From NCBI GenBank assembly GCA_951406725.2, contig OX597833.1:71362001-71426000 (forward strand): DNA of 64,000 bases, read 5' to 3'. A program made the position numbers and the translations under genes. The notes below the pieces were generated by a model. It did no database searches. It worked only from the letters and a program-made list of their open reading frames with translations, and had not been told where the DNA came from. The DNA comes from Octopus vulgaris (taxonomy: Eukaryota). Numbering within the stretch: position 1 is the first letter of the stretch; every line of letters starts with the position of its first letter. Shown piece by piece: positions 3,373 to 62,049 of the stretch.

Positions 3373-3757
3373 CAGTATTCCTTCAACTATCGCGGGTGTT
3401 ATGTTCCAAAACCTCCTACAGAAATAATTAAAATATAAAAAAAATATAAATAGCAATTGTCTGTAGAAACCCACAATATACTGAGGAGTCCATGATAGGA
3501 ATTTACATCTATTAGCCAGAAAAATCCGTAATGTACTGAGTGTGTGATAGGTGAACCGTGAAACGGCAAATGATCACTGTATATAAGTGTGTGTGTGTAT
3601 ACACACACATATACTGAGTGTGTGATAAGTGAACCGTGATATGGCAAATGATTACTGTATATAAGTGTGTGTGTGTGTGTGTGTGTGTATATACATATAC
3701 ACACTTACATACAGTGATCCCTTGCCATATCACGGTTCACCTATCACACACTCAGTC
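3373..3757. mobile_element. Tigger/pogo-type MITE (3373-3579) with two extra terminal copies
   Basis: TA|CAGTATTCCTTCAACTATCGCGG ... GGCAAATGATCACTG|TA; the right end is repeated at ~3612-3660 and inverted at ~3710-3757. Confidence 0.6.
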
Positions 3758-4473
3758 TATGTGTGTGTATATATACGCACACACAAATATACATACACAT
3801 ATAAACATATACACACACACATCTACGAAAAAAAAAAAACTCAGTTGTTTGTGTAAATGGAAGAAAACAACAACCAATTCAGAAAAAAAAGAAAAACTCT
3901 GTTACAAACAGTAAGAAGAAGAAGAAGAAGAATTGTCAAGTATTTCTCAAGTGTTGAGAAAGTTTCCATACAACACACACACACACACACACACACGGAG
4001 GAATTACAAGGAAATAACAAATATTCCAGAAGGGTTTCCTCTTTCTTCTCTTCTTTTTTTTTTTATTTGCTTCGTTTGTTTTTCCCCCCTTAACGATGCC
4101 TTAATTTAAAACAATCAATCCACTTAGTTACTGTGCATGACATGCATAAAAGCTGCACAAGACACATGCCCCAAATACCATTCCACCTTCTCCAATGCAG
4201 TTTTAGAATATTTCTACCATTCTTCTGCAACTAATACTATCAACACCACCACCACTACGACTACTACGGGAAAGACCCAATTTTTCTGTTTGGAATCCCC
4301 TTTTTTTTTAATCGTGGTGTATCTGGGGAGATTTAAATACTTTGGATCTTATAAGGTTGGAATGTATTGACAAACACGTTGACACTACTACTACTACTAC
4401 CCACACACACACACATCTGTTATTTATCACAGTCATTAGACTTTGGCCATGCTGGGGCATGGCCTTCAAGGGT

Positions 4474-9485: not shown

Positions 9486-10319
9486 GTATCTAATTCTTTC
9501 TCGTATATCAAACAACAATTGCTATGATTAGTGTATTGAGAATAACAGAAGAGGAAGAACCGAGTTCTCAGTTGGTTGGGCTGTTGGAAATAGATAATAG
9601 AGGAAAAAGTAATGAAGGAGGAACCAGTTACAGAACTAAACTAGGTTACATAATTCAGCCATGCAAATGTGCCAAGTCAGTCGAGATCATTCAAAGAAAT
9701 GAGGTTTGGATATTTATGCAATCCTATTTAATTTACATACAAACACACGTGCATGCGTGCGTGTGTGTGTGAACTAGCCTAGATGGATGCATAATAAATA
9801 TGCAGATATTCATTGCAGATCCTGCTGTACATGGTGCAAATATAGATTTCATATAAGCACCAATCAGCAAAGATTTGTTCACTGAAACTATAAACAAAGG
9901 CCAACTGCTTTGGCCAGACTCAAAGGTCAGGGGTACTTCTGGCTGATGAGACACAACACATTGAAACACTGGAGTCGCAGAATCCTTTTGTGCCAATAAG
10001 TTGAGTGTGTTGAATGTGCCATCGTCACAAGGGATGGAAGTTTACTTCTTTGGCATATTTTGCAGCTCAACCCACCTGGATGTATTGAGAACAAACAAAT
10101 ATTTGGGTCATGAAATTATTGCACAAATTCTCTTCCATTCAGAGAGAGAAAACAAACATCAAACATCTCAGCCACAAACCAGAGAAGGTGTCTCACCATG
10201 TCAGGTACCCGATTTCAGGATTACAACCATTAACATAGGAAATAGGGATGGAAGAGATTGTAGCTATATAGGGGTGAATAGATGAGTGCCATGTTCAAGA
10301 AGATGGAAGCAAACATCAG

Positions 10320-10810
10320 GCAGACACATCAAAGACATACAGCATCTCCAAAGAGTCCAGAAGCTGGCTACCCGCATGGTTCATGGTCTCAAGAATTTGT
10401 CTTATGAAGAAAGGCTGAAGACGCTCAACCTTTATTCTCTAGAAAAACGCCGCCGCCGTGGTGATCTCATTCTCGCTCACAACATCATAAGCGGAAAGTG
10501 TAACCTCTCGAAAGAGCTGTTCTTCACTCCTGCTCCAGAGCGTCGGCTGCGGGGTCATTCCAAAAAGCTCTATCTGCGACGATTTTATCTCAATCGAAGG
10601 AGAGGGACTTTCTCCGTCCGGGTTGCGGATCCGTGGAACAAGCTGCCGGACGAGATGGTGAAGATGCCGACGACCGCTTTGTTCAAAGTCTCCCTTGACC
10701 TCAAGTGGCCTGAACTCTTTACATGAACACCACCCTGTACATAACTCCATGTCCCCCTACATGGCCTTGCTTTTTGCTTTTTGAGCCAAAAATTTAACTA
10801 ACTAACTAAC
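10320..10810 (+). mobile_element. 5'-truncated CR1-clade LINE: ORF2 C-terminus, 3'UTR and (TAAC)n tail
   Basis: 'DIQHLQRVQKLATRMVHGLKNLSYEERLKTLNLYSLEKRRRRGDLI...RLRGHSKKL...FSVRVADPWNKLP' is the typical CR1 C-terminus. Frame is open and CpGs are retained, suggesting a young copy; tail aactaactaactaac. Confidence 0.92.
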
Positions 10811-24140: not shown

Positions 24141-24470
24141 GTAGGGGACAGATTCTTTCCTACAGTGGTAGTATTTGGATAAAGAATGATAATGAAGACC
24201 TTTTCTAATTAGGGTTTTGGTATCAGAGACTCTGCAGAAGTATCAAATCATATCAGTATTTTTATTTAGGGCATGATGGAAAAGAAAGTCAGTTCTTTCT
24301 ATGGATGAATTTACAGAGACAAAGGTTTTTTAATATCTAAAACAGAAAAAAAATAGCAGACAGATTAGGAAGATTACTGACAGAACTGAACCTTAAAATT
24401 ATAAGCATTAATTAAAAAATTTGCTCATTTTCTGGATGTGATCGAAATGAAAAATGGAACATGTAAGACA
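24140..24470 (+). mobile_element. Penelope-like element RT fragment
   Basis: 'ILSYSGSIWIKNDNEDLF', 'GIRDSAEVSNHISIFI' (cf. GSYDGAEVCELVG), 'IYRDKG' (cf. LYRDDG) and 'NLKIISIN..HFLDV'. Confidence 0.7.
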
Positions 24471-25016
24471 TAGTTCCTGACCCTTCTTAGAGGGGAGCAT
24501 CTCTGAGTGAGAATCAACTCAGATCATGACAACCCTTCCAACTGATACCATCATGAAAAAGCTAACATAAAATGATAAAAGCATACAAGTATACACCCAC
24601 ACACACACCTACACGTAAACACACCTAAATACCTACATAAATGTGTATAATGAAAGCCAGGTCAGTGTTCGGTTGCACATTCCCCTCATTCAAAGAATCA
24701 TACATGCACAACTAATCTAGCATCCATTCTCCTTTGTACTTTTCAAAACATATATCTGTGTTGGTCAGTTTGACATTTAAGCTTGTTAAGCCATCTCTCA
24801 ATTCAGAAAGCCATTAAGGTTAATTCTCACTCTTACAGTAGCAACATTTATCACCGATTCTTCCAGGCAATTCCCATTAACTGGGAAAACTGTTGGAGAA
24901 TTACAGTTGTACTTTATATGAATGAAAATATTATTATTACTATTCACAATTTTCATAATCTTCTTATTTTGTTTGCAAGATTCTTTATATGAGTTCATGT
25001 GTTGAAGCATATTCTG

Positions 25017-25256
25017 TTGTGTCTGGGGAGAGTCATTTTCTTTTTGTGCCTTATTATGTAAAATTTCCACGTTTTCTTATTTTTATTGTCCTAAACTTTT
25101 TGTTGCGTCTTGCAACCTTTTCAATAGTTTTGATTAGAATCAAAACTATTGAAAAGGTTGCAAGACGCAATGAAAATTTTAGGACAATAAAAATAAGAAA
25201 ATGTGGAAATTTTACATAATAAGGCACAAAAAGAAAATGACTCTCCCCAGACACAA
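25017..25256. repeat. 240 bp near-perfect palindrome
   Basis: 119 bp arms, 2 nt centre (AG, 25136-25137), 4 mismatches counted by eye. Confidence 0.97.
25146..25182 (+). ncRNA. Minimal type-I hammerhead-like motif, U3-A8 variant (mirror copy at 25091-25127 on minus)
   Basis: CTA TTGAAAA G GTTGC-AAGAC-GCAAT GAAAA TTT TAG; the mirror copy has GAAA>AAAA from CpG decay. Confidence 0.6.
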
Positions 25257-25676
25257 TTTTCATAAGCTTCTTAGTGTTCCCAGAAGTACTACGTCTTCAA
25301 AATTCAGCATTGTAAAAACAGCCTACTTTGAGTGAATTTATGTTAAATATTTCCTAACTTAAGATCAGAGGGGAAAGGCTTCTTTAATGGATGCATAAAA
25401 GTTTTGCTTATTCTTGTTCTTACATAAATCAAAAATGAAAGATGATAGCTAAGAAGTTTCCTAAAATGCTTCCTGCTTTAAAACTGCCAGTTTTTAGCTC
25501 ATTATTCGCATGCAACATCCAGCTGAGAGATGTCTCATCACAAGAAACTAATGAAACCCACTTAAATTGTTGGAATGAAATTTGAGAATGTCTTGTCTTA
25601 ATTCTTCCCTAAATCCACCTGGCATTGTCCCTTTTAGATATTAAAAGATCATTATCTCTGCAAATTTTTCCCAAGA

Positions 25677-25930
25677 TCATCATCATCATCGTTTAACGTC
25701 CGTTTTCCATGCTAGCATGGGTTGGATGATTTTGACTGAGGGCTGGCAAACCAGATGGCTGCACTAGGCTCCAATCTTGATCTGGCAGAGTTTCTACAGC
25801 TGGATGCCCTTCCTAATGCCAACCACTCCAAAAGTGTAGTGGGTGCTTTTTACGTGCCACCAGCACGGGGGCCAGTCAGGCGGCACTGACAATGACCTCA
25901 CTCGAATCTTTTTACACATGCCAGCGGCAC
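25677..25930 (-). mobile_element. S3 repeat inserted in the PLE
   Basis: (CAT)n followed by S3 consensus. Confidence 0.88.
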
Positions 25931-27498
25931 GAATAAAAACATCAATATGATTTGATACTTTGGCAGAATCCCCGACATCCCAAACCACATCTTTATCCGA
26001 ATGCTATCACTGTGGAAAAGAATAGATTTCTTAGGATGCTTTATAATTTGCGTATTCTCATCCTTAACAGCCGTGCAAAGTTCCATGAAAACATGGGTTT
26101 TCAAAAAAAAGTTATTTTGTTATAGATGGGTAATGATCTACTTTGTCAAATTGTGTGAAATAGTAATTTCTTTTATCTCCCATAGAAAGAAAACAATTAA
26201 TTACACTCTGCTAATTTTCCTCGTGAGACAATATGGGACATTTTTGTACATCATTATCTGTTCTGTTTAATATAGTTTTGCTAAGTCTAAAGATTTGTTT
26301 TCATAAGGTTAATAAGTTGGTCAATTACTTGTAGAATTAGCTTTATGATGCTTAATTATATATGGTCTTTTTTAAAGTTAAGGATCTTCTTTCTGTCATC
26401 TATATTAAGAGGGGAGATTGTAAGCTAGGTCCCTATTACACAGAGTTTATTTTATTGGTAATACTATCTCAACAAATCATTGTAAACATCATCATCATCA
26501 TTATTTAACTTTCATGTTCCATGCTGGCATGGGTCAGACAGTTTTACATAACGTGTGTGAGTCGTGTGCAACCCTGGGTCTATGGTTAAGAAGTACACTG
26601 GAGAACCAAGTAGTTTAGCGTTCGCTTCCACTGCATGGCAATGTTGGGGGGAGGGGAAGCATTCAGACATCGACCAAAAAAGAAAATTATTGCAATAAGT
26701 TTTGACCAATTATATAAGAATTTATGTGTGAGCAAAAGAAAGTGTGTGTAAGTGACTGTTTGTGGGTATGTGTGGCAGTTTGATGTGTCAGTGCAGTAAC
26801 CCCTGAAACCCCCCTCACTTATAGCTTGCTACCATTGGCTAATCCATGGCGTAAGGCAGGAAGTAGGACAGTACTGCCACTACACAACCTCTCCTTCACC
26901 AAAACTCCTACCAGGCCCCCCTTTTGGTCACCCATGGGATCTCCAGGAATATTGGGCTCCTAGAGATATTGACATGCTGGTCTACTCTGGTGAATATTCC
27001 CCAACATTTAACAGTCACTATTCTGCTGCCTTTAAGATGAGTCCAAGAAGAGAATGGCAAAGGAAGAACACTTTGAGAGAAAAAAAAGCAAGGTATGGGG
27101 GTGGTCACCTTTGACCCTTTTACTGAATAAACCAGACATATCCAATCATGTCATTACCTTTAGCTTTGGAAAGCAGTTTTATATAGGAATCTGTCTTTTG
27201 TTGAAGAATGTCATGTTCATTGAAACTATGAGATGTGTTGAGTTTGCTGAGGCAATGAAACTTGCACAAAATGCCAATTCTTTCTCTCTCTCCCTCCCTC
27301 TGTTTTTGGTAGATATTTAACATGATTACTAGAATAACCATGAAATTTAATTTTACAGTGAAAGGATTAAAGAGAATTCCAACAGACTGGATTTCTGGCA
27401 ATGCCCTGATATAGTCGTCTTGGGCCACCACCGGATGTATCATCTTCACAGAAAAGATAGTGATACTGAGGAATACTCATCTCGAAATCACTATAAGG

Positions 27499-41310: not shown

Positions 41311-41400
41311 ACATAAATAAAAATAAAGTGTGTGTGTGTGAGTGTGTATATATATATATGAAAGAAGGTTTGAAAATGCAATTTCAAAAGATGTTTATTC

Positions 41401-41442
41401 ACTTGACCGGTTTCACTTTTTTAGAAAAAGATTGTCAAAAGT
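41401..41442 (-). ncRNA. Type-I hammerhead motif, U3-A8 variant
   Basis: Reverse complement: ACTT TTGACAA T CTTTTT-CTA-AAAAAG T GAAAC CG GTC AAGT. Confidence 0.72.
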
Positions 41443-41822
41443 AAAATATAAAAGCTTTGTAGTGTTGAGTACTGGTTTTCACAAAATATTACAATACATA
41501 TATACATTCAGGTCAGTTCATCTCAAATTCTTTGTAAACTAAATATATCTCCTTCTGTGTGTATATATATATATATACCACCAAAATATGACCTTTTTGA
41601 ACTTATAATTTTCTGTGTATATATATAGATACTTCCAAACAAACATGATTTTTAATGAAATCCTAATATTTTTAACAAACTTTTTGATATTTTCTCAAGA
41701 TTTTTCCTATAAACTGTTTTTAACATTTTCTTACTATTATCAAAGAATGTATATATGTATTGTAATATTTTGTGACAACCAGTACCTAACACAACAAAGC
41801 TCTTACAAAGCTTTTACATTTT

Positions 41823-41864
41823 ACTTTTGATAATCTTTTTCTAAAAAAGTGAAACCGGTCAAGT
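41823..41864 (+). ncRNA. Type-I hammerhead motif, U3-A8 variant
   Basis: ACTT TTGATAA T CTTTTT-CTA-AAAAAG T GAAAC CG GTC AAGT; GUC site; palindromic stem III ACCGGT. Confidence 0.72.
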
Positions 41865-41948
41865 GAATAAATATCTTTTAAAATTGCATTTTCAAACCTT
41901 CTTTCATATATATTTCCACTCGTGCGGTACCTTACAACTTCACTTTGT

Positions 41949-42716: not shown

Positions 42717-43150
42717 GGCCAGGATGCCACATGCAAGACTCAAGAGAGATTTAAAGAAGAATGTTGCGATCAAGAAGGTGAATCTTAGGGACCTTTTTGT
42801 GTGCCCAGTTTGTGCATGGCCTTTCTTTTGCTGGGCTCAAATCTCATCTGCGGACCCATGAAATACAAACCTCCCCTAACTACTCTGCCTTTATATCTGT
42901 GAACACCTTTCAATGCCGTGTATGCCATAAGGTCTGCGGTTCTAATGGAGGCCTCAAAAGACGTTTTGAGATCCACAAAGATCAGAACTTATCTGCAGCT
43001 CTGGGAGGTCCAAGGCAGATGTGCAATCTATGTGGGTGTCTTTTCAAAACGTTGTCTGGTTCAGGAAGCCACATGGGACACCATGACAGATCTAAGGTGT
43101 AAGTACAAGAGGGGGTCAAATTCTGCATAAAGAGTAGACAACCAACCACC
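42715..43150 (+). pseudogene. Three degenerate C2H2 zinc fingers, probably the 3' end of an RTE-type LINE ORF
   Basis: 'FVCPVC../SFAGLKSHLRTH' (frameshifted), 'FQCRVCHKVCGSNGGLKRRFEIH', 'CNLCGCLFKTLSGSGSHMGHH'; stop at 43102, short 3'UTR, no TGEKP linkers. Confidence 0.7.
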
Positions 43151-43168
43151 ATATATATATATATATAT

Positions 43169-43378
43169 ATATGTAAAAAAATACAAACTGGGACAAGAAC
43201 GCAAAACATTTAGAAGACGATACAAAAAACACGGACGGGACATTAATAATCAGCCGAAATTGCGAGGATGATCCGGTTCTTGACTGAAGATTGAAGGCTT
43301 CGAATGTCCCGTCCGTGTTTTTTGTATCGTCTTCTAAATGTTTTGCGTTCTTGTCCCAGTTTGTATTTTTTTACATAT
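43169..43378. repeat. Perfect 76 bp inverted repeat with 58 bp spacer, inserted in (TA)n
   Basis: 43169-43244 is the reverse complement of 43303-43378. Confidence 0.95.
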
Positions 43379-45552
43379 ACATATATATCATCATCATCAT
43401 CATTTAGCGTCTGTTTTTCATGCTAGCATGGGTTGAATGGTTTAACTGGGGTCTGTGAAGCCGGAAGGCTTCATCAGGCCCAGTCAGATTTGGCAGTGTT
43501 TCTACGGCTGGATGCCCTTCCTAATGCCAACCACTCCGTGAGTGTAGTGGGTACTTTTTACGTGCCACCTGCACAGGTGCCAGACAGAGCTGGCAAATGG
43601 CCATGAACGGATGGTGTTTTTACGTGCCACCGGCACGGGGGCCAGGCGAGGCTCGCAACAGACACGAGCAGATGGTGCTTCGGCGCCCATACCCTTTTTG
43701 GTCTGTATGTAAGTACATATTTATATATATATATATATATAAAGGCCCTGGGAGGATAGAATGGTAGGGTATTGTCAATGCAGCTCCCAATCTGAGTTTT
43801 AGGTTGTTGGATTCCAGACTAATGTTAAAATTCTTCAAGTGTAGAAACGCAGGTTCCATTTTGGTAAACCTGTTGTGTGGGTTTAGTGATGAGTAAAATA
43901 TAACCCAAAAGAGGAAGACAAAGACGTGTGTCAACGTCTTTCTTTGTTTTCTTATTATATATGGGGGGACAGGCATGTAAAAAAACACCCAGGTTTGTGT
44001 CACATATGTGGCACCTGCGCTGGTGCCACAGAAAAAGCATCCAGTACACTCTGTGAAGTTGTTGGCATTAGGAAGGGCATCCGGTTGTAGAAACCATGCC
44101 AAAACAGACAACTGGAGCCTGGAGCAGCTTCTGTCAAACCGTACAACCCATGTCAGCATGGAAAATGGACATTAAACAATGATGATGATATATGTATGTA
44201 TGTGTATACACACACACATATGTACAACACAGGCAAAGCTGTGTGGTTAATTGCTTCCGAACCACAAGGTTTCAGGGTCAGTTCCACTGCAAGTGTCTTC
44301 TACTACAGTCTTGAATTGTTCAAGTAGATCTGGTAGGAGGAAACTGAAAGAAGCCTCTGTGTGTGTGTGTGTTGCCATCCAAGTGCATGTGAGCGTTCTT
44401 GTTTCAACACTATGATAAATCTAAACAAACATCACCATCAAGCACCCCATTACCCTTACTGTCACCTCTCCTTCTTTCACACTAATCTCACTCCTGATCC
44501 CTTCCTAACACTATCCCTCTTTCCTCAACCAACCCCACAATAAAAAACACATTTTGACCATTGCATTTCAACTTCTACCCTCTCCATCATGAATGCTCCC
44601 TTTTGCCTTGCTCGCTCCAAGGTGACACCATTTTTGGTGGTTCCAGAACAAAAGCATGCAGTACATTTGTGTAATGGATTCAAACTGAACAGCAACACAG
44701 GGCTTGAGCAGGTTCTTTAGTTTTCTTTAGGAGAAAACAAACCTCTCCACCACTGGTGCCATGAAAATAATACCAGTACTTAAGACATTTTCTTCTGGCC
44801 TATTAAACCCTGTTGAATTGGCCTGACCCATGCTGGCATGGAAAATGGACATAAGATGGAGATGTGGAAATGGAATAAACTATCCAGGTCAGTTGTTAGC
44901 TGACAGGGCATTGCATCATCATCATCGTCGTCTAACATCCGTTTTCCGTGCTAGCCCGTGTTGGAAGGTTCGACCGGGGTCTGGGAAGCCAGGAGGCTGC
45001 ACCAGGCTCCAGTCTGATTTGGCAGAGTTTCTACAGCTGGATGCCCTTCCTAATGCCAACCACTCTTCAAAAATTCCAGGCTTCCCAAAATTCTTCAACA
45101 TTATCCCTGATATACCTGTGCATCCTTTCCTCGTTATGGTTCTTTTAAACTTCACCTTTCCCCATTTTTGCATTTTTCTTTTGTCCACTCCACAGGTACT
45201 TCTAGCTTTCATAGATGTCTTTCTTTACTCGACTTCTATTGTTGCTCTCTGTCTCTTCTTTTAATGAGTTGTGGTGCACCTGAGTATTGTCGCCTTACTG
45301 GCACCTGTGCCGTTGGTATGTGCAAAAAAAAAAAATTCAAGCGAGGTCATTGCCAGTACTTTCTGACTGGCCTTTGTACCGGTGGCACGTAAAAGCACCC
45401 ACTACACTCTCGGAGTGGTTGGCGTTAGAAACTCTGCCAGATCAAGATTGGAGCCTGGTGCAGCCATCTGGTTCGCCAGCCCACAGTCAAACCGTCCAAC
45501 CCATGCTAGCATGGAAAGTGGACGTTAAACGATGCTGCTGCTGCTGCTGAAG

Positions 45553-56901: not shown

Positions 56902-57010
56902 ATGTATGTATATATATATATGTGTGTGTGTGTATAATTAAATATTGAACGATTGACTGAGTGCACAACACTGCCTTGGTGGATATATAATTTCTTTATT
57001 TGTGAATTAA

Positions 57011-57078
57011 GGCTACCAATGGTTTCATGTTAAGTAAAGCAGGAAAATATCCTAGTCATTTAAACAATTTTTCAAGCC
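57011..57078 (-). ncRNA. Type-I hammerhead motif, U3-A8 variant (left arm of inverted repeat 56993-57218)
   Basis: Reverse complement: GGC TTGAAAA ATTGTT...AACAT GAAAC CATTG GTA GCC. Confidence 0.7.
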
Positions 57079-57133
57079 AATCACATAGAGATTGTTTTCC
57101 AGGATGGAGACGAACACTTATCTCCATGTGATT

Positions 57134-57200
57134 GGCTTGAAAAATTGTTAAGACACTGGGATATTTTCCTGCTTTTCTTAACATGAAACTAATGGTAGCC
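57134..57200 (+). ncRNA. Type-I hammerhead motif, U3-A8 variant (right arm)
   Basis: GGC TTGAAAA AT TGTTAAGA...TCTTAACA T GAAAC TAATG GTA GCC. Confidence 0.75.
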
Positions 57201-57291
57201 TTAATTCCCAAATAAAGATCACACACACACACATAAATATAAATATGCATGTATGTATGTAACTGAAGATACTACAAATAAAGCAATTCTC

Positions 57292-60890: not shown

Positions 60891-61295
60891 GATAGATAGA
60901 TAGATAGATAGTTAGAGAGATAGATAGATAGATACATAGGTAGATAGATAGATAGAGAGAGAGAGAGAAAGAAGGATTGATTGATTAAAAGAGAAGGATT
61001 GAGGAAAAAAGCGCTAATTGCAGAAAAATCGGGTTTTTTTCTTCTCTTTTCAACAATTCAATATCGTTTTAATTCATTGGTTTTTTTTTTGGTTTTATTT
61101 TTCGTTTCGTTTGTTTGTTTTTCTACCTTTTTTTTTTTATCTTTGTAAAGAATTTGAAATTCCAGATTTGACATTAAAATATTTCGATGAAATAGGGGAC
61201 AGGTGGGGAGGGAAATAAGGGAACCATGAATTAACTAGGTTCAGTTTTAAGTTAGTTCATTAATTAAAACAAAGACCAAATCAAATATGCGACGA

Positions 61296-61990
<695 letters not shown>

Positions 61991-62049
61991 TGTAATAATA
62001 ATAAAAGTAGTAGTAGTAGTAGTAGTCGGGGCTTTTTTTTAAACGACTG

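Follow-up and report, generated by a model that had tools for sequence, protein, structure and literature searches.

In the 64-kb stretch of Octopus vulgaris DNA that was analysed here as a whole (64,000 nt, hereafter the window), positions 25017 to 25256 form an inverted repeat, and each of its two arms carries a motif of the minimal-hammerhead type. A near-direct repeat of 22 nt is found around this palindrome, one of its copies at some distance from the left arm and the other overlapping the end of the right arm. The features, with the roles that they would have in a Penelope-like element (PLE), are as follows.

24945-24966, plus strand: left repeat copy, read as a target-site duplication of putative target origin (17 nt without the 5-nt overlap).
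24967-25016, minus strand: one-sided extension of the left arm; the offset is measured, and the piece is a putative PLE "tail" between two reverse transcription start sites.
25017-25135, minus strand: left arm, putative 5'-truncated PLE pseudo-LTR end with its sense on the minus strand.
25091-25127, minus strand: left hammerhead, U3-A8, in which CpG decay has turned G12 into A and positions 15.2 and 16.2 do not pair; predicted to be inactive.
25136-25137, no strand: centre of 2 nt and putative head-to-head (5'-to-5') junction; each ribozyme core lies 11 nt downstream of it.
25138-25256, plus strand: right arm, putative inverted 5'-truncated copy without the tail.
25146-25182, plus strand: right hammerhead, U3-A8, in which CpG decay has turned C11.1 into U; cleavage is predicted after 25179.
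25252-25256, plus strand: overlap of arm and repeat, 5 nt, a possible microhomology for priming or joining.
25252-25273, plus strand: right repeat copy, 22 nt, with one mismatch to the left copy.

The earlier note on this DNA had described arms of 119 bp, a 2-nt loop and four mismatches, and re-measurement gave the same: the arms 25017-25135 and 25138-25256 are 119 nt each around a 2-nt centre, and 115 of the 119 arm columns are complementary, the mismatches being 25071/25202, 25096/25177, 25101/25172 and 25102/25171. As RNA, the palindrome is predicted to fold into a hairpin of -186.8 kcal/mol, and none of 200 shuffled sequences folded as well. CpG decays are indeed present among the mismatches, but where two had been counted we measured three: CpG-to-TpG changes account for three of the four (25071/25202 included), and these three fall within the 6 CpG columns of the 119 (P = 0.0003). 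All three C-to-T changes are carried by the plus strand, a bias that with n=3 events is not significant. Palindromes are a known type of chimera, and assemblers are described as being troubled by PLE inverted structures (PMC8557442), and it has to be considered whether the locus is an assembly or library fold-back artefact. The mismatch pattern, with three of the four arm differences in CpG columns, is that of methyl-cytosine decay over time and thus speaks against such an artefact, and a chimera would not be expected to come with an offset 22-nt duplication that has a mismatch of its own. An artefact is highly improbable in our judgement, and CpG decay appears to be the best evidence here against it in a palindrome judged from the assembled sequence rather than from raw reads. 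With 2 non-CpG differences in 135 columns, or 5 in 141 when CpG is included, and an octopus calibration of 0.065 per 18 million years (PMC13282606), the insert would be roughly 2-5 million years old, an estimate with a wide error and subject to possible gene conversion.

The hammerhead motifs, at +25149 and -25124, both read outward from the centre. The descriptor used to find them was built from the definition of minimal hammerheads in PMC4209133: a C3-G8 or U3-A8 core, a bulged base, a helix II opened by G10.1-C11.1, a GAAA box, an NUH site and a helix I of at least 3 bp. In its strict form it matched nothing in the 64-kb window. When G-U was allowed at 10.1/11.1, a single match appeared in the window, at +25149, and when the change of G12 to A was allowed, a single match appeared at -25124; the two arms jointly hold everything that the definition lists, and each single copy departs from it at one CpG-decayed position. 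None of 5000 shuffles matched for either arm, and resampled 64-kb windows (60 windows) contained a mean of 0 to 0.017 matches, figures somewhat weakened by the fact that the relaxations of the descriptor were picked after inspection of the sequence. The relaxations are partly justified because each brings back a CpG for which the other arm provides some of the evidence. The proposal of two mirrored U3-A8 hammerhead units is thus borne out as one motif per arm, the only descriptor matches in 64 kb.

In these motifs helix I has only 3 bp, and the bulged base is a G, where the published consensus (>80%) in the alignment of PMC4209133 has H. Rfam gave no match in the window at the gathering threshold, and the relaxed Rfam searches gave no hammerhead family among 55 and 8 weak matches, only generic hairpin (microRNA-model) matches far below threshold; a 22-nt motif of the arm had no match in prokaryotic genomes. 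Helix II has a pair probability of 0.87-1.0 when an arm is folded in isolation and of 0.0 when the palindrome is folded as a whole. According to published reports, minimal hammerheads require a partner on the same strand or the help of a protein (PMC4209133, PMC11167929). Both mutated and, according to the predicted folding, mutually sequestered in the full hairpin, the two ribozymes would be relics rather than a working two-ribozyme device; their crippled and sequestered state had been overlooked in the earlier note.

The two copies of the 22-nt near-direct repeat (24945-24966 and 25252-25273) are identical at 21 of 22 positions, the mismatch being 24959 versus 25266, and the score of this repeat is 18 where the maximum among 400 resampled flank pairs is 12. 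An ATT-rich run lies beside it. The right copy shares 5 nt (25252-25256) with the end of the right arm, and 50 nt (24967-25016) separate the left copy from the left arm. The repeat itself and its 5-nt overlap had been noticed before, but the insert had been described simply as bracketed by the repeat, and the gap at the left makes the bracketing asymmetric. The extra 50 nt seem to be better read as the element's own one-sided tail, in the sense in which a tail is described for PLEs (PMC3846280, PMC8557442, PMC11167929). We read the insert as 24967-25251 or 24967-25256 (285-290 nt), which would comprise the tail, an arm, the centre and the other arm within a target duplication of 17-22 nt. An AC-loop hairpin in the 50-nt extension is no better than in shuffles (z -0.22). 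On the minus strand, at 100 nt from the start of the arm, an ATG with A-rich surroundings begins a frame of 23 codons that runs to the end of the tail (25036-24967) with one stop. This frame is a candidate start of the element's own ORF; the rotifer pseudo-LTR plus tail amounts to 22 codons.

Long inverted arms with almost no interior are what a fold-back DNA transposon or a MITE with 119-nt terminal inverted repeats would have. Such an element would be expected to be flanked by a short duplication adjoining its arms, and the lack of any duplication of 2-12 nt at all 7 end positions tested removes this reading. In addition, the only repeat present is offset by 50 nt on one side, and the arms contain a retroelement ribozyme motif. 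We consider this origin to be largely refuted and scarcely credible.

Membership of the PLEs is argued from the ribozyme motif and the anatomy only and should be taken as probable in that sense; the arm end, the tail and the repeat are read from one locus, the 64-kb window containing no other copy of the element's family. Since both hammerheads point outward from the centre, the centre would be the 5'-to-5' junction of two truncated copies. A hammerhead-bearing pseudo-LTR, which often has an inverted truncated copy next to it, is a feature of PLEs that the octopus locus shows, and the agreement of this anatomy with the published PLE inverted pseudo-LTR structure had previously been overlooked. 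The PLEs of Adineta vaga have an inverted pseudo-LTR, a 31-bp tail at one end and duplications of 8-10 bp, and palindromes occur at their junctions, which are mostly head-to-head (PMC3846280); inverted truncated copies and a one-sided tail of 30-40 bp are given as general features of PLEs (PMC8557442, PMC8969392). As read here, the octopus insert would be like Pen2a and Pen3a of A. vaga in having head-to-head inverted truncated copies with a palindrome at the junction, a tail at one end only and a target duplication around the whole insert. It is unlike them in being only 285-290 nt long, without an internal ORF or a second direct pseudo-LTR, and in the full symmetry of its arms about 2 nt; its putative tail has 50 nt versus 31, and its putative duplication 17-22 nt versus 8-10 (PMC3846280). 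For a PLE of Chlamydomonas, the median length of new insertions is 128 bp (PMC9977147), and Penelope-like families have been annotated in Octopus vulgaris (PMC13282606).

The ribozyme motif can be compared in the same way. Its U3-A8 core letters are identical to those of the PLE-associated S. mansoni(4) motif, with the bulge before G10.1; the lack of helix III and a palindromic 15.2/16.2 are common to the PLE hammerhead of the Schistosoma Cercyon elements and the octopus motif, and the A-U-U-U cleavage box of the latter is that of the Crassostrea gigas PLE motif (PMC4209133). Unlike the minimal hammerheads of PLEs presented in that source, the octopus motif has a G in the bulge and a helix II of 5 bp, and both copies are mutated. 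Minimal hammerhead pairs are described there as lying on opposite strands at a distance of 100-700 bp, whereas the two octopus cores are only 24 nt apart (PMC4209133).

A short, AT-rich and non-coding repeat with a type I hammerhead is also the description of non-LTR retrozymes (PMC7229834; bioRxiv 10.64898/2026.07.22.740005). The arm and the tail together have 169 nt, which is near the minimum of the sizes of retrozymes, and the locus might be a non-autonomous hammerhead repeat, i.e., a 169-nt retrozyme monomer, whose inverted insertion was brought about in trans by a PLE. A derivation of retrozymes from PLEs has been proposed (bioRxiv 10.64898/2026.07.22.740005), and their duplications are said to be longer than 4 bp (PMC7229834). 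They are, however, head-to-tail tandems with canonical type I hammerheads that have helix III, whereas the octopus unit is inverted and its motif is of the minimal PLE type (PMC7229834; bioRxiv 10.64898/2026.07.22.740005). The absence of a tandem and of helix III speaks against a retrozyme, which we regard as very unlikely.

The reading that we prefer, tentatively and with close to even chances of its being right, is that of a single dead PLE insertion in which two very short 5'-truncated ends of the element, primed from both target strands, were joined head-to-head. The endonuclease of the element would nick the two target strands 17-22 nt apart, and each target 3' end would prime reverse transcription of the pseudo-LTR RNA. 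One priming would take place at an inner start site, which is the arm end about 100 nt past helix II, with the help of the 5-nt microhomology, and the other at an outer start site 50 nt further on. Both cDNAs would stop just upstream of the hammerhead and would then be joined; fill-in would produce the target duplication, and CpG decay would later damage both ribozymes. On each strand of the locus, the flanking repeat is followed by sequence that is antisense to the RNA of the ribozyme, which is the order expected of target-primed cDNA. The purified protein of an anole PLE is reported to cut and extend both strands and is modelled as a dimer, and this PLE has two start sites separated by the tail, the first of which lies within an ORF that starts at helix II, 111-118 nt from the beginning of this ORF (PMC11167929); measured from the start of helix II, the octopus arm ends at 100 nt and the extension at 150 nt. 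As read here, the octopus insert would be like the Anolis Poseidon element PAc, as the latter is described, in having a hammerhead at the start of the ORF, an AT-rich target, both target strands extended and two start sites of reverse transcription about 100-150 nt downstream. PAc differs in its C3-G8 core and its 30-40-nt tail, and the likeness is one of description and not of sequence (PMC11167929).

A PLE insertion is suggested by the core and the cleavage box, which match those of Schistosoma and Crassostrea PLE hammerheads in a motif that appears far above chance, and by the anatomy, since the insert seems to combine several structures described for PLEs, i.e., truncated copies in inverted orientation, a tail on one side, a palindrome at the junction and a target duplication. 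A second fold-back at 56993-57218 also counts in favour; by eye, its centre contains a helix II like that of hammerheads, and one of its sides is longer by about 58 nt. Against our preferred reading stand the lack of a PLE protein match, of an Rfam hammerhead match and of a second copy of the family in the window; the 50-nt tail and the 17-22-nt duplication, which as inferred here would be longer than the published 30-40 nt and 8-10 bp; and the G in the bulge instead of H, the helix I of only 3 bp and the frame that is open into the left flank. Two cDNAs that end at exactly the same base would, moreover, be easier to obtain by fold-back than by priming at two sites. In a fold-back, there would have been one priming, and the cDNA started at the tail end would have folded back on a short 3' hairpin, copied 119 nt of itself and become linked, by way of the 5-nt microhomology, to the other strand of the target; the PLE origin and the target duplication would be the same. 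Such a scenario accounts at once for the microhomology and for the exact symmetry about the 2-nt centre, the latter better than two-site priming does, and self-priming has been proposed for the head-to-head PLE palindromes of Adineta vaga (PMC3846280). It predicts, however, that the end of the short arm should be variable, whereas what sets published inverted pseudo-LTRs apart from direct ones is a defined tail, and the extension of both strands in vitro starts at two fixed sites (PMC11167929). We consider fold-back possible but doubtful. Taken together, two-site priming and fold-back make a PLE insertion with a target duplication quite probable, and to this extent the earlier suggestions of a PLE origin (now specified by the U3-A8 minimal hammerhead), of an insertion product with a target duplication and of fold-back as a live mechanism all stand.

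The same cannot be said of the earlier placement of the palindrome within a Penelope-like ORF, which is unsupported, Pfam and three protein searches having given no PLE match on the flanks. Six-frame Pfam analysis of 23.0-27.5 kb gave 4 weak matches, all below the cut-off and outside the element, and no family was found in any of the 12 flank frames. A phmmer search with the minus frame of 24651-25133 (stops as X) against 1.84 billion proteins gave 2 matches, neither of them to a PLE protein; both were tandem-repeat proteins that tblastn did not match to the window, and they were rejected as accumulations of weak repeat matches. This search covered one of the three minus frames and included no PLE N-terminal profile, and decayed short ORFs are easily missed by it. 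None of the candidates of two word-seeded protein searches (1 and 74, respectively) scored, and a regular-expression scan for PLE reverse transcriptase and endonuclease motifs revealed no cluster in the window. Neither the reverse transcriptase nor the GIY-YIG endonuclease was found in 23.0-27.5 kb; the missing ORF is expected of a 5'-truncated copy, and PLE membership is thus not shown at the protein level.

No relationship is seen between the left and the right flank, or between either of them and the arm plus tail. A stop-free minus-strand frame of 92 codons (24798-25076) spans the arm, the extension and the repeat and then continues for 55 codons into the left flank; the chance of such an open frame in flank-like random DNA is 0.025 for the given frame and 0.073 for any of the three. 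By eye we take this frame to resemble, loosely, the N-termini of PLE proteins. Both the frame and this presumed resemblance count for a reading in which the left flank is the continuing Penelope ORF and the 22-mer is part of the element, or of an older PLE that holds the palindrome, its right copy being a templated insert at the junction or a duplication. The PLE endonuclease is also described as able to target its own pseudo-LTR (PMC11167929). The Pfam, phmmer and word-seeded searches without a PLE match argue against a continuing ORF, and so do the stops in the same minus frame, which meets one 5 codons into the right flank region and is stopped repeatedly beyond 24800; we find this reading improbable. 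An old inverted similarity (75-85%) is seen at 24152-24349 and 25625-26023, on either side of the palindrome, the right part being interrupted by a repeat at about 25677-25930. These two segments were rejected as the ends of one element around the palindrome, since the inverted matches do not extend that far.

If the locus is transcribed, its hairpin would plausibly be an excellent substrate for ADAR or Dicer, and read-through transcription would be predicted to give the 119-bp hairpin with neither ribozyme folding. The octopus lineage is characterised by heavy A-to-I editing. Our literature searches found no paper on octopus PLE hammerheads and none that combines "Penelope", "hammerhead" and "head-to-head". 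The parts and their arrangement are already known, and the locus is most likely an ordinary leftover of a Penelope-type element. As the dead remnant of a retroelement whose class is known and whose layout has been published, a single locus matters little. Its value is that of an unusually clean and minimal example, which extends the U3-A8 minimal hammerhead to an octopus and is of moderate interest as a seed for a genome-wide test of PLE integration. The completion of PLE integration and the origin of inverted ends are described as still unsettled (PMC11167929, PMC8557442), and arm ends, tails and duplication lengths, once collected family-wide, would tell two-ended priming from fold-back self-priming. 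A bolder view, which we think unlikely, is that octopus genomes contain very many miniature head-to-head PLE inserts, with up to three candidates of different families in these 64 kb, and that each mini-insert is the full footprint of a dimeric PLE enzyme that primes both strands, with two fixed RNA sites and a stagger of 17-22 nt. If this were true, PLE integration could be read from genome sequence alone, and near-perfect hairpins of 85-120 bp may form a distinct class of RNA-editing substrates.

Seven local inverted matches are listed in the window, and two others besides the one described have the general build of the palindrome (56993-57218 and 43159-43388). The first has arms of about 100 nt, identical at 90 of 100 positions, and a 27-nt centre with a stem like helix II of hammerheads, whose loop letters match the fish and frog PLE motifs shown in PMC4209133. 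Its left arm starts where the cleavage site would be. Further to the left follow about 58 nt of additional, non-repetitive sequence (from 56935 on) and then a microsatellite; 56935-57218 is probably another PLE family. The second has 86-nt arms, identical at 85 of 86 positions and ending in (AT)n, and a 58-nt centre with degenerate hammerhead-like boxes, and may be a PLE end or a LINE 3' end. Both fail the hammerhead descriptor and neither resembles 25017-25256 in sequence, and they are therefore suggestive only. These repeats indicate that fold-backs are commonplace in the octopus genome.

A host gene was sought in 20 of the 178 long ORFs of the window, and only a weak zinc finger was found. 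The open frame 42782-43102, just left of the fold-back at 43159, has a weak C2H2 zinc-finger match and is possibly a LINE end. At about 10286-10726 there is a C-terminal fragment of a LINE, which we take to be CR1-like; its part 10286-10723 is 87% identical to a protein labelled as Octopus vulgaris, and the next of the 120 matches listed is 50% identical, which marks the window as octopus DNA. The open frame 1313-1618 on the minus strand gave no Pfam match at E 0.05 and by eye presumably resembles the C-terminus of a mariner transposase. Inverted arms of 169 nt (89%) with an interior of 235 nt lie between (AT)n runs at 41352-41913 and are MITE-like, a compound tandem and inverted unit surrounds (CA)/(TG) runs at 3530-3800, and an (ATT/AAT)n microsatellite of about 800 nt occupies 61250-62040.
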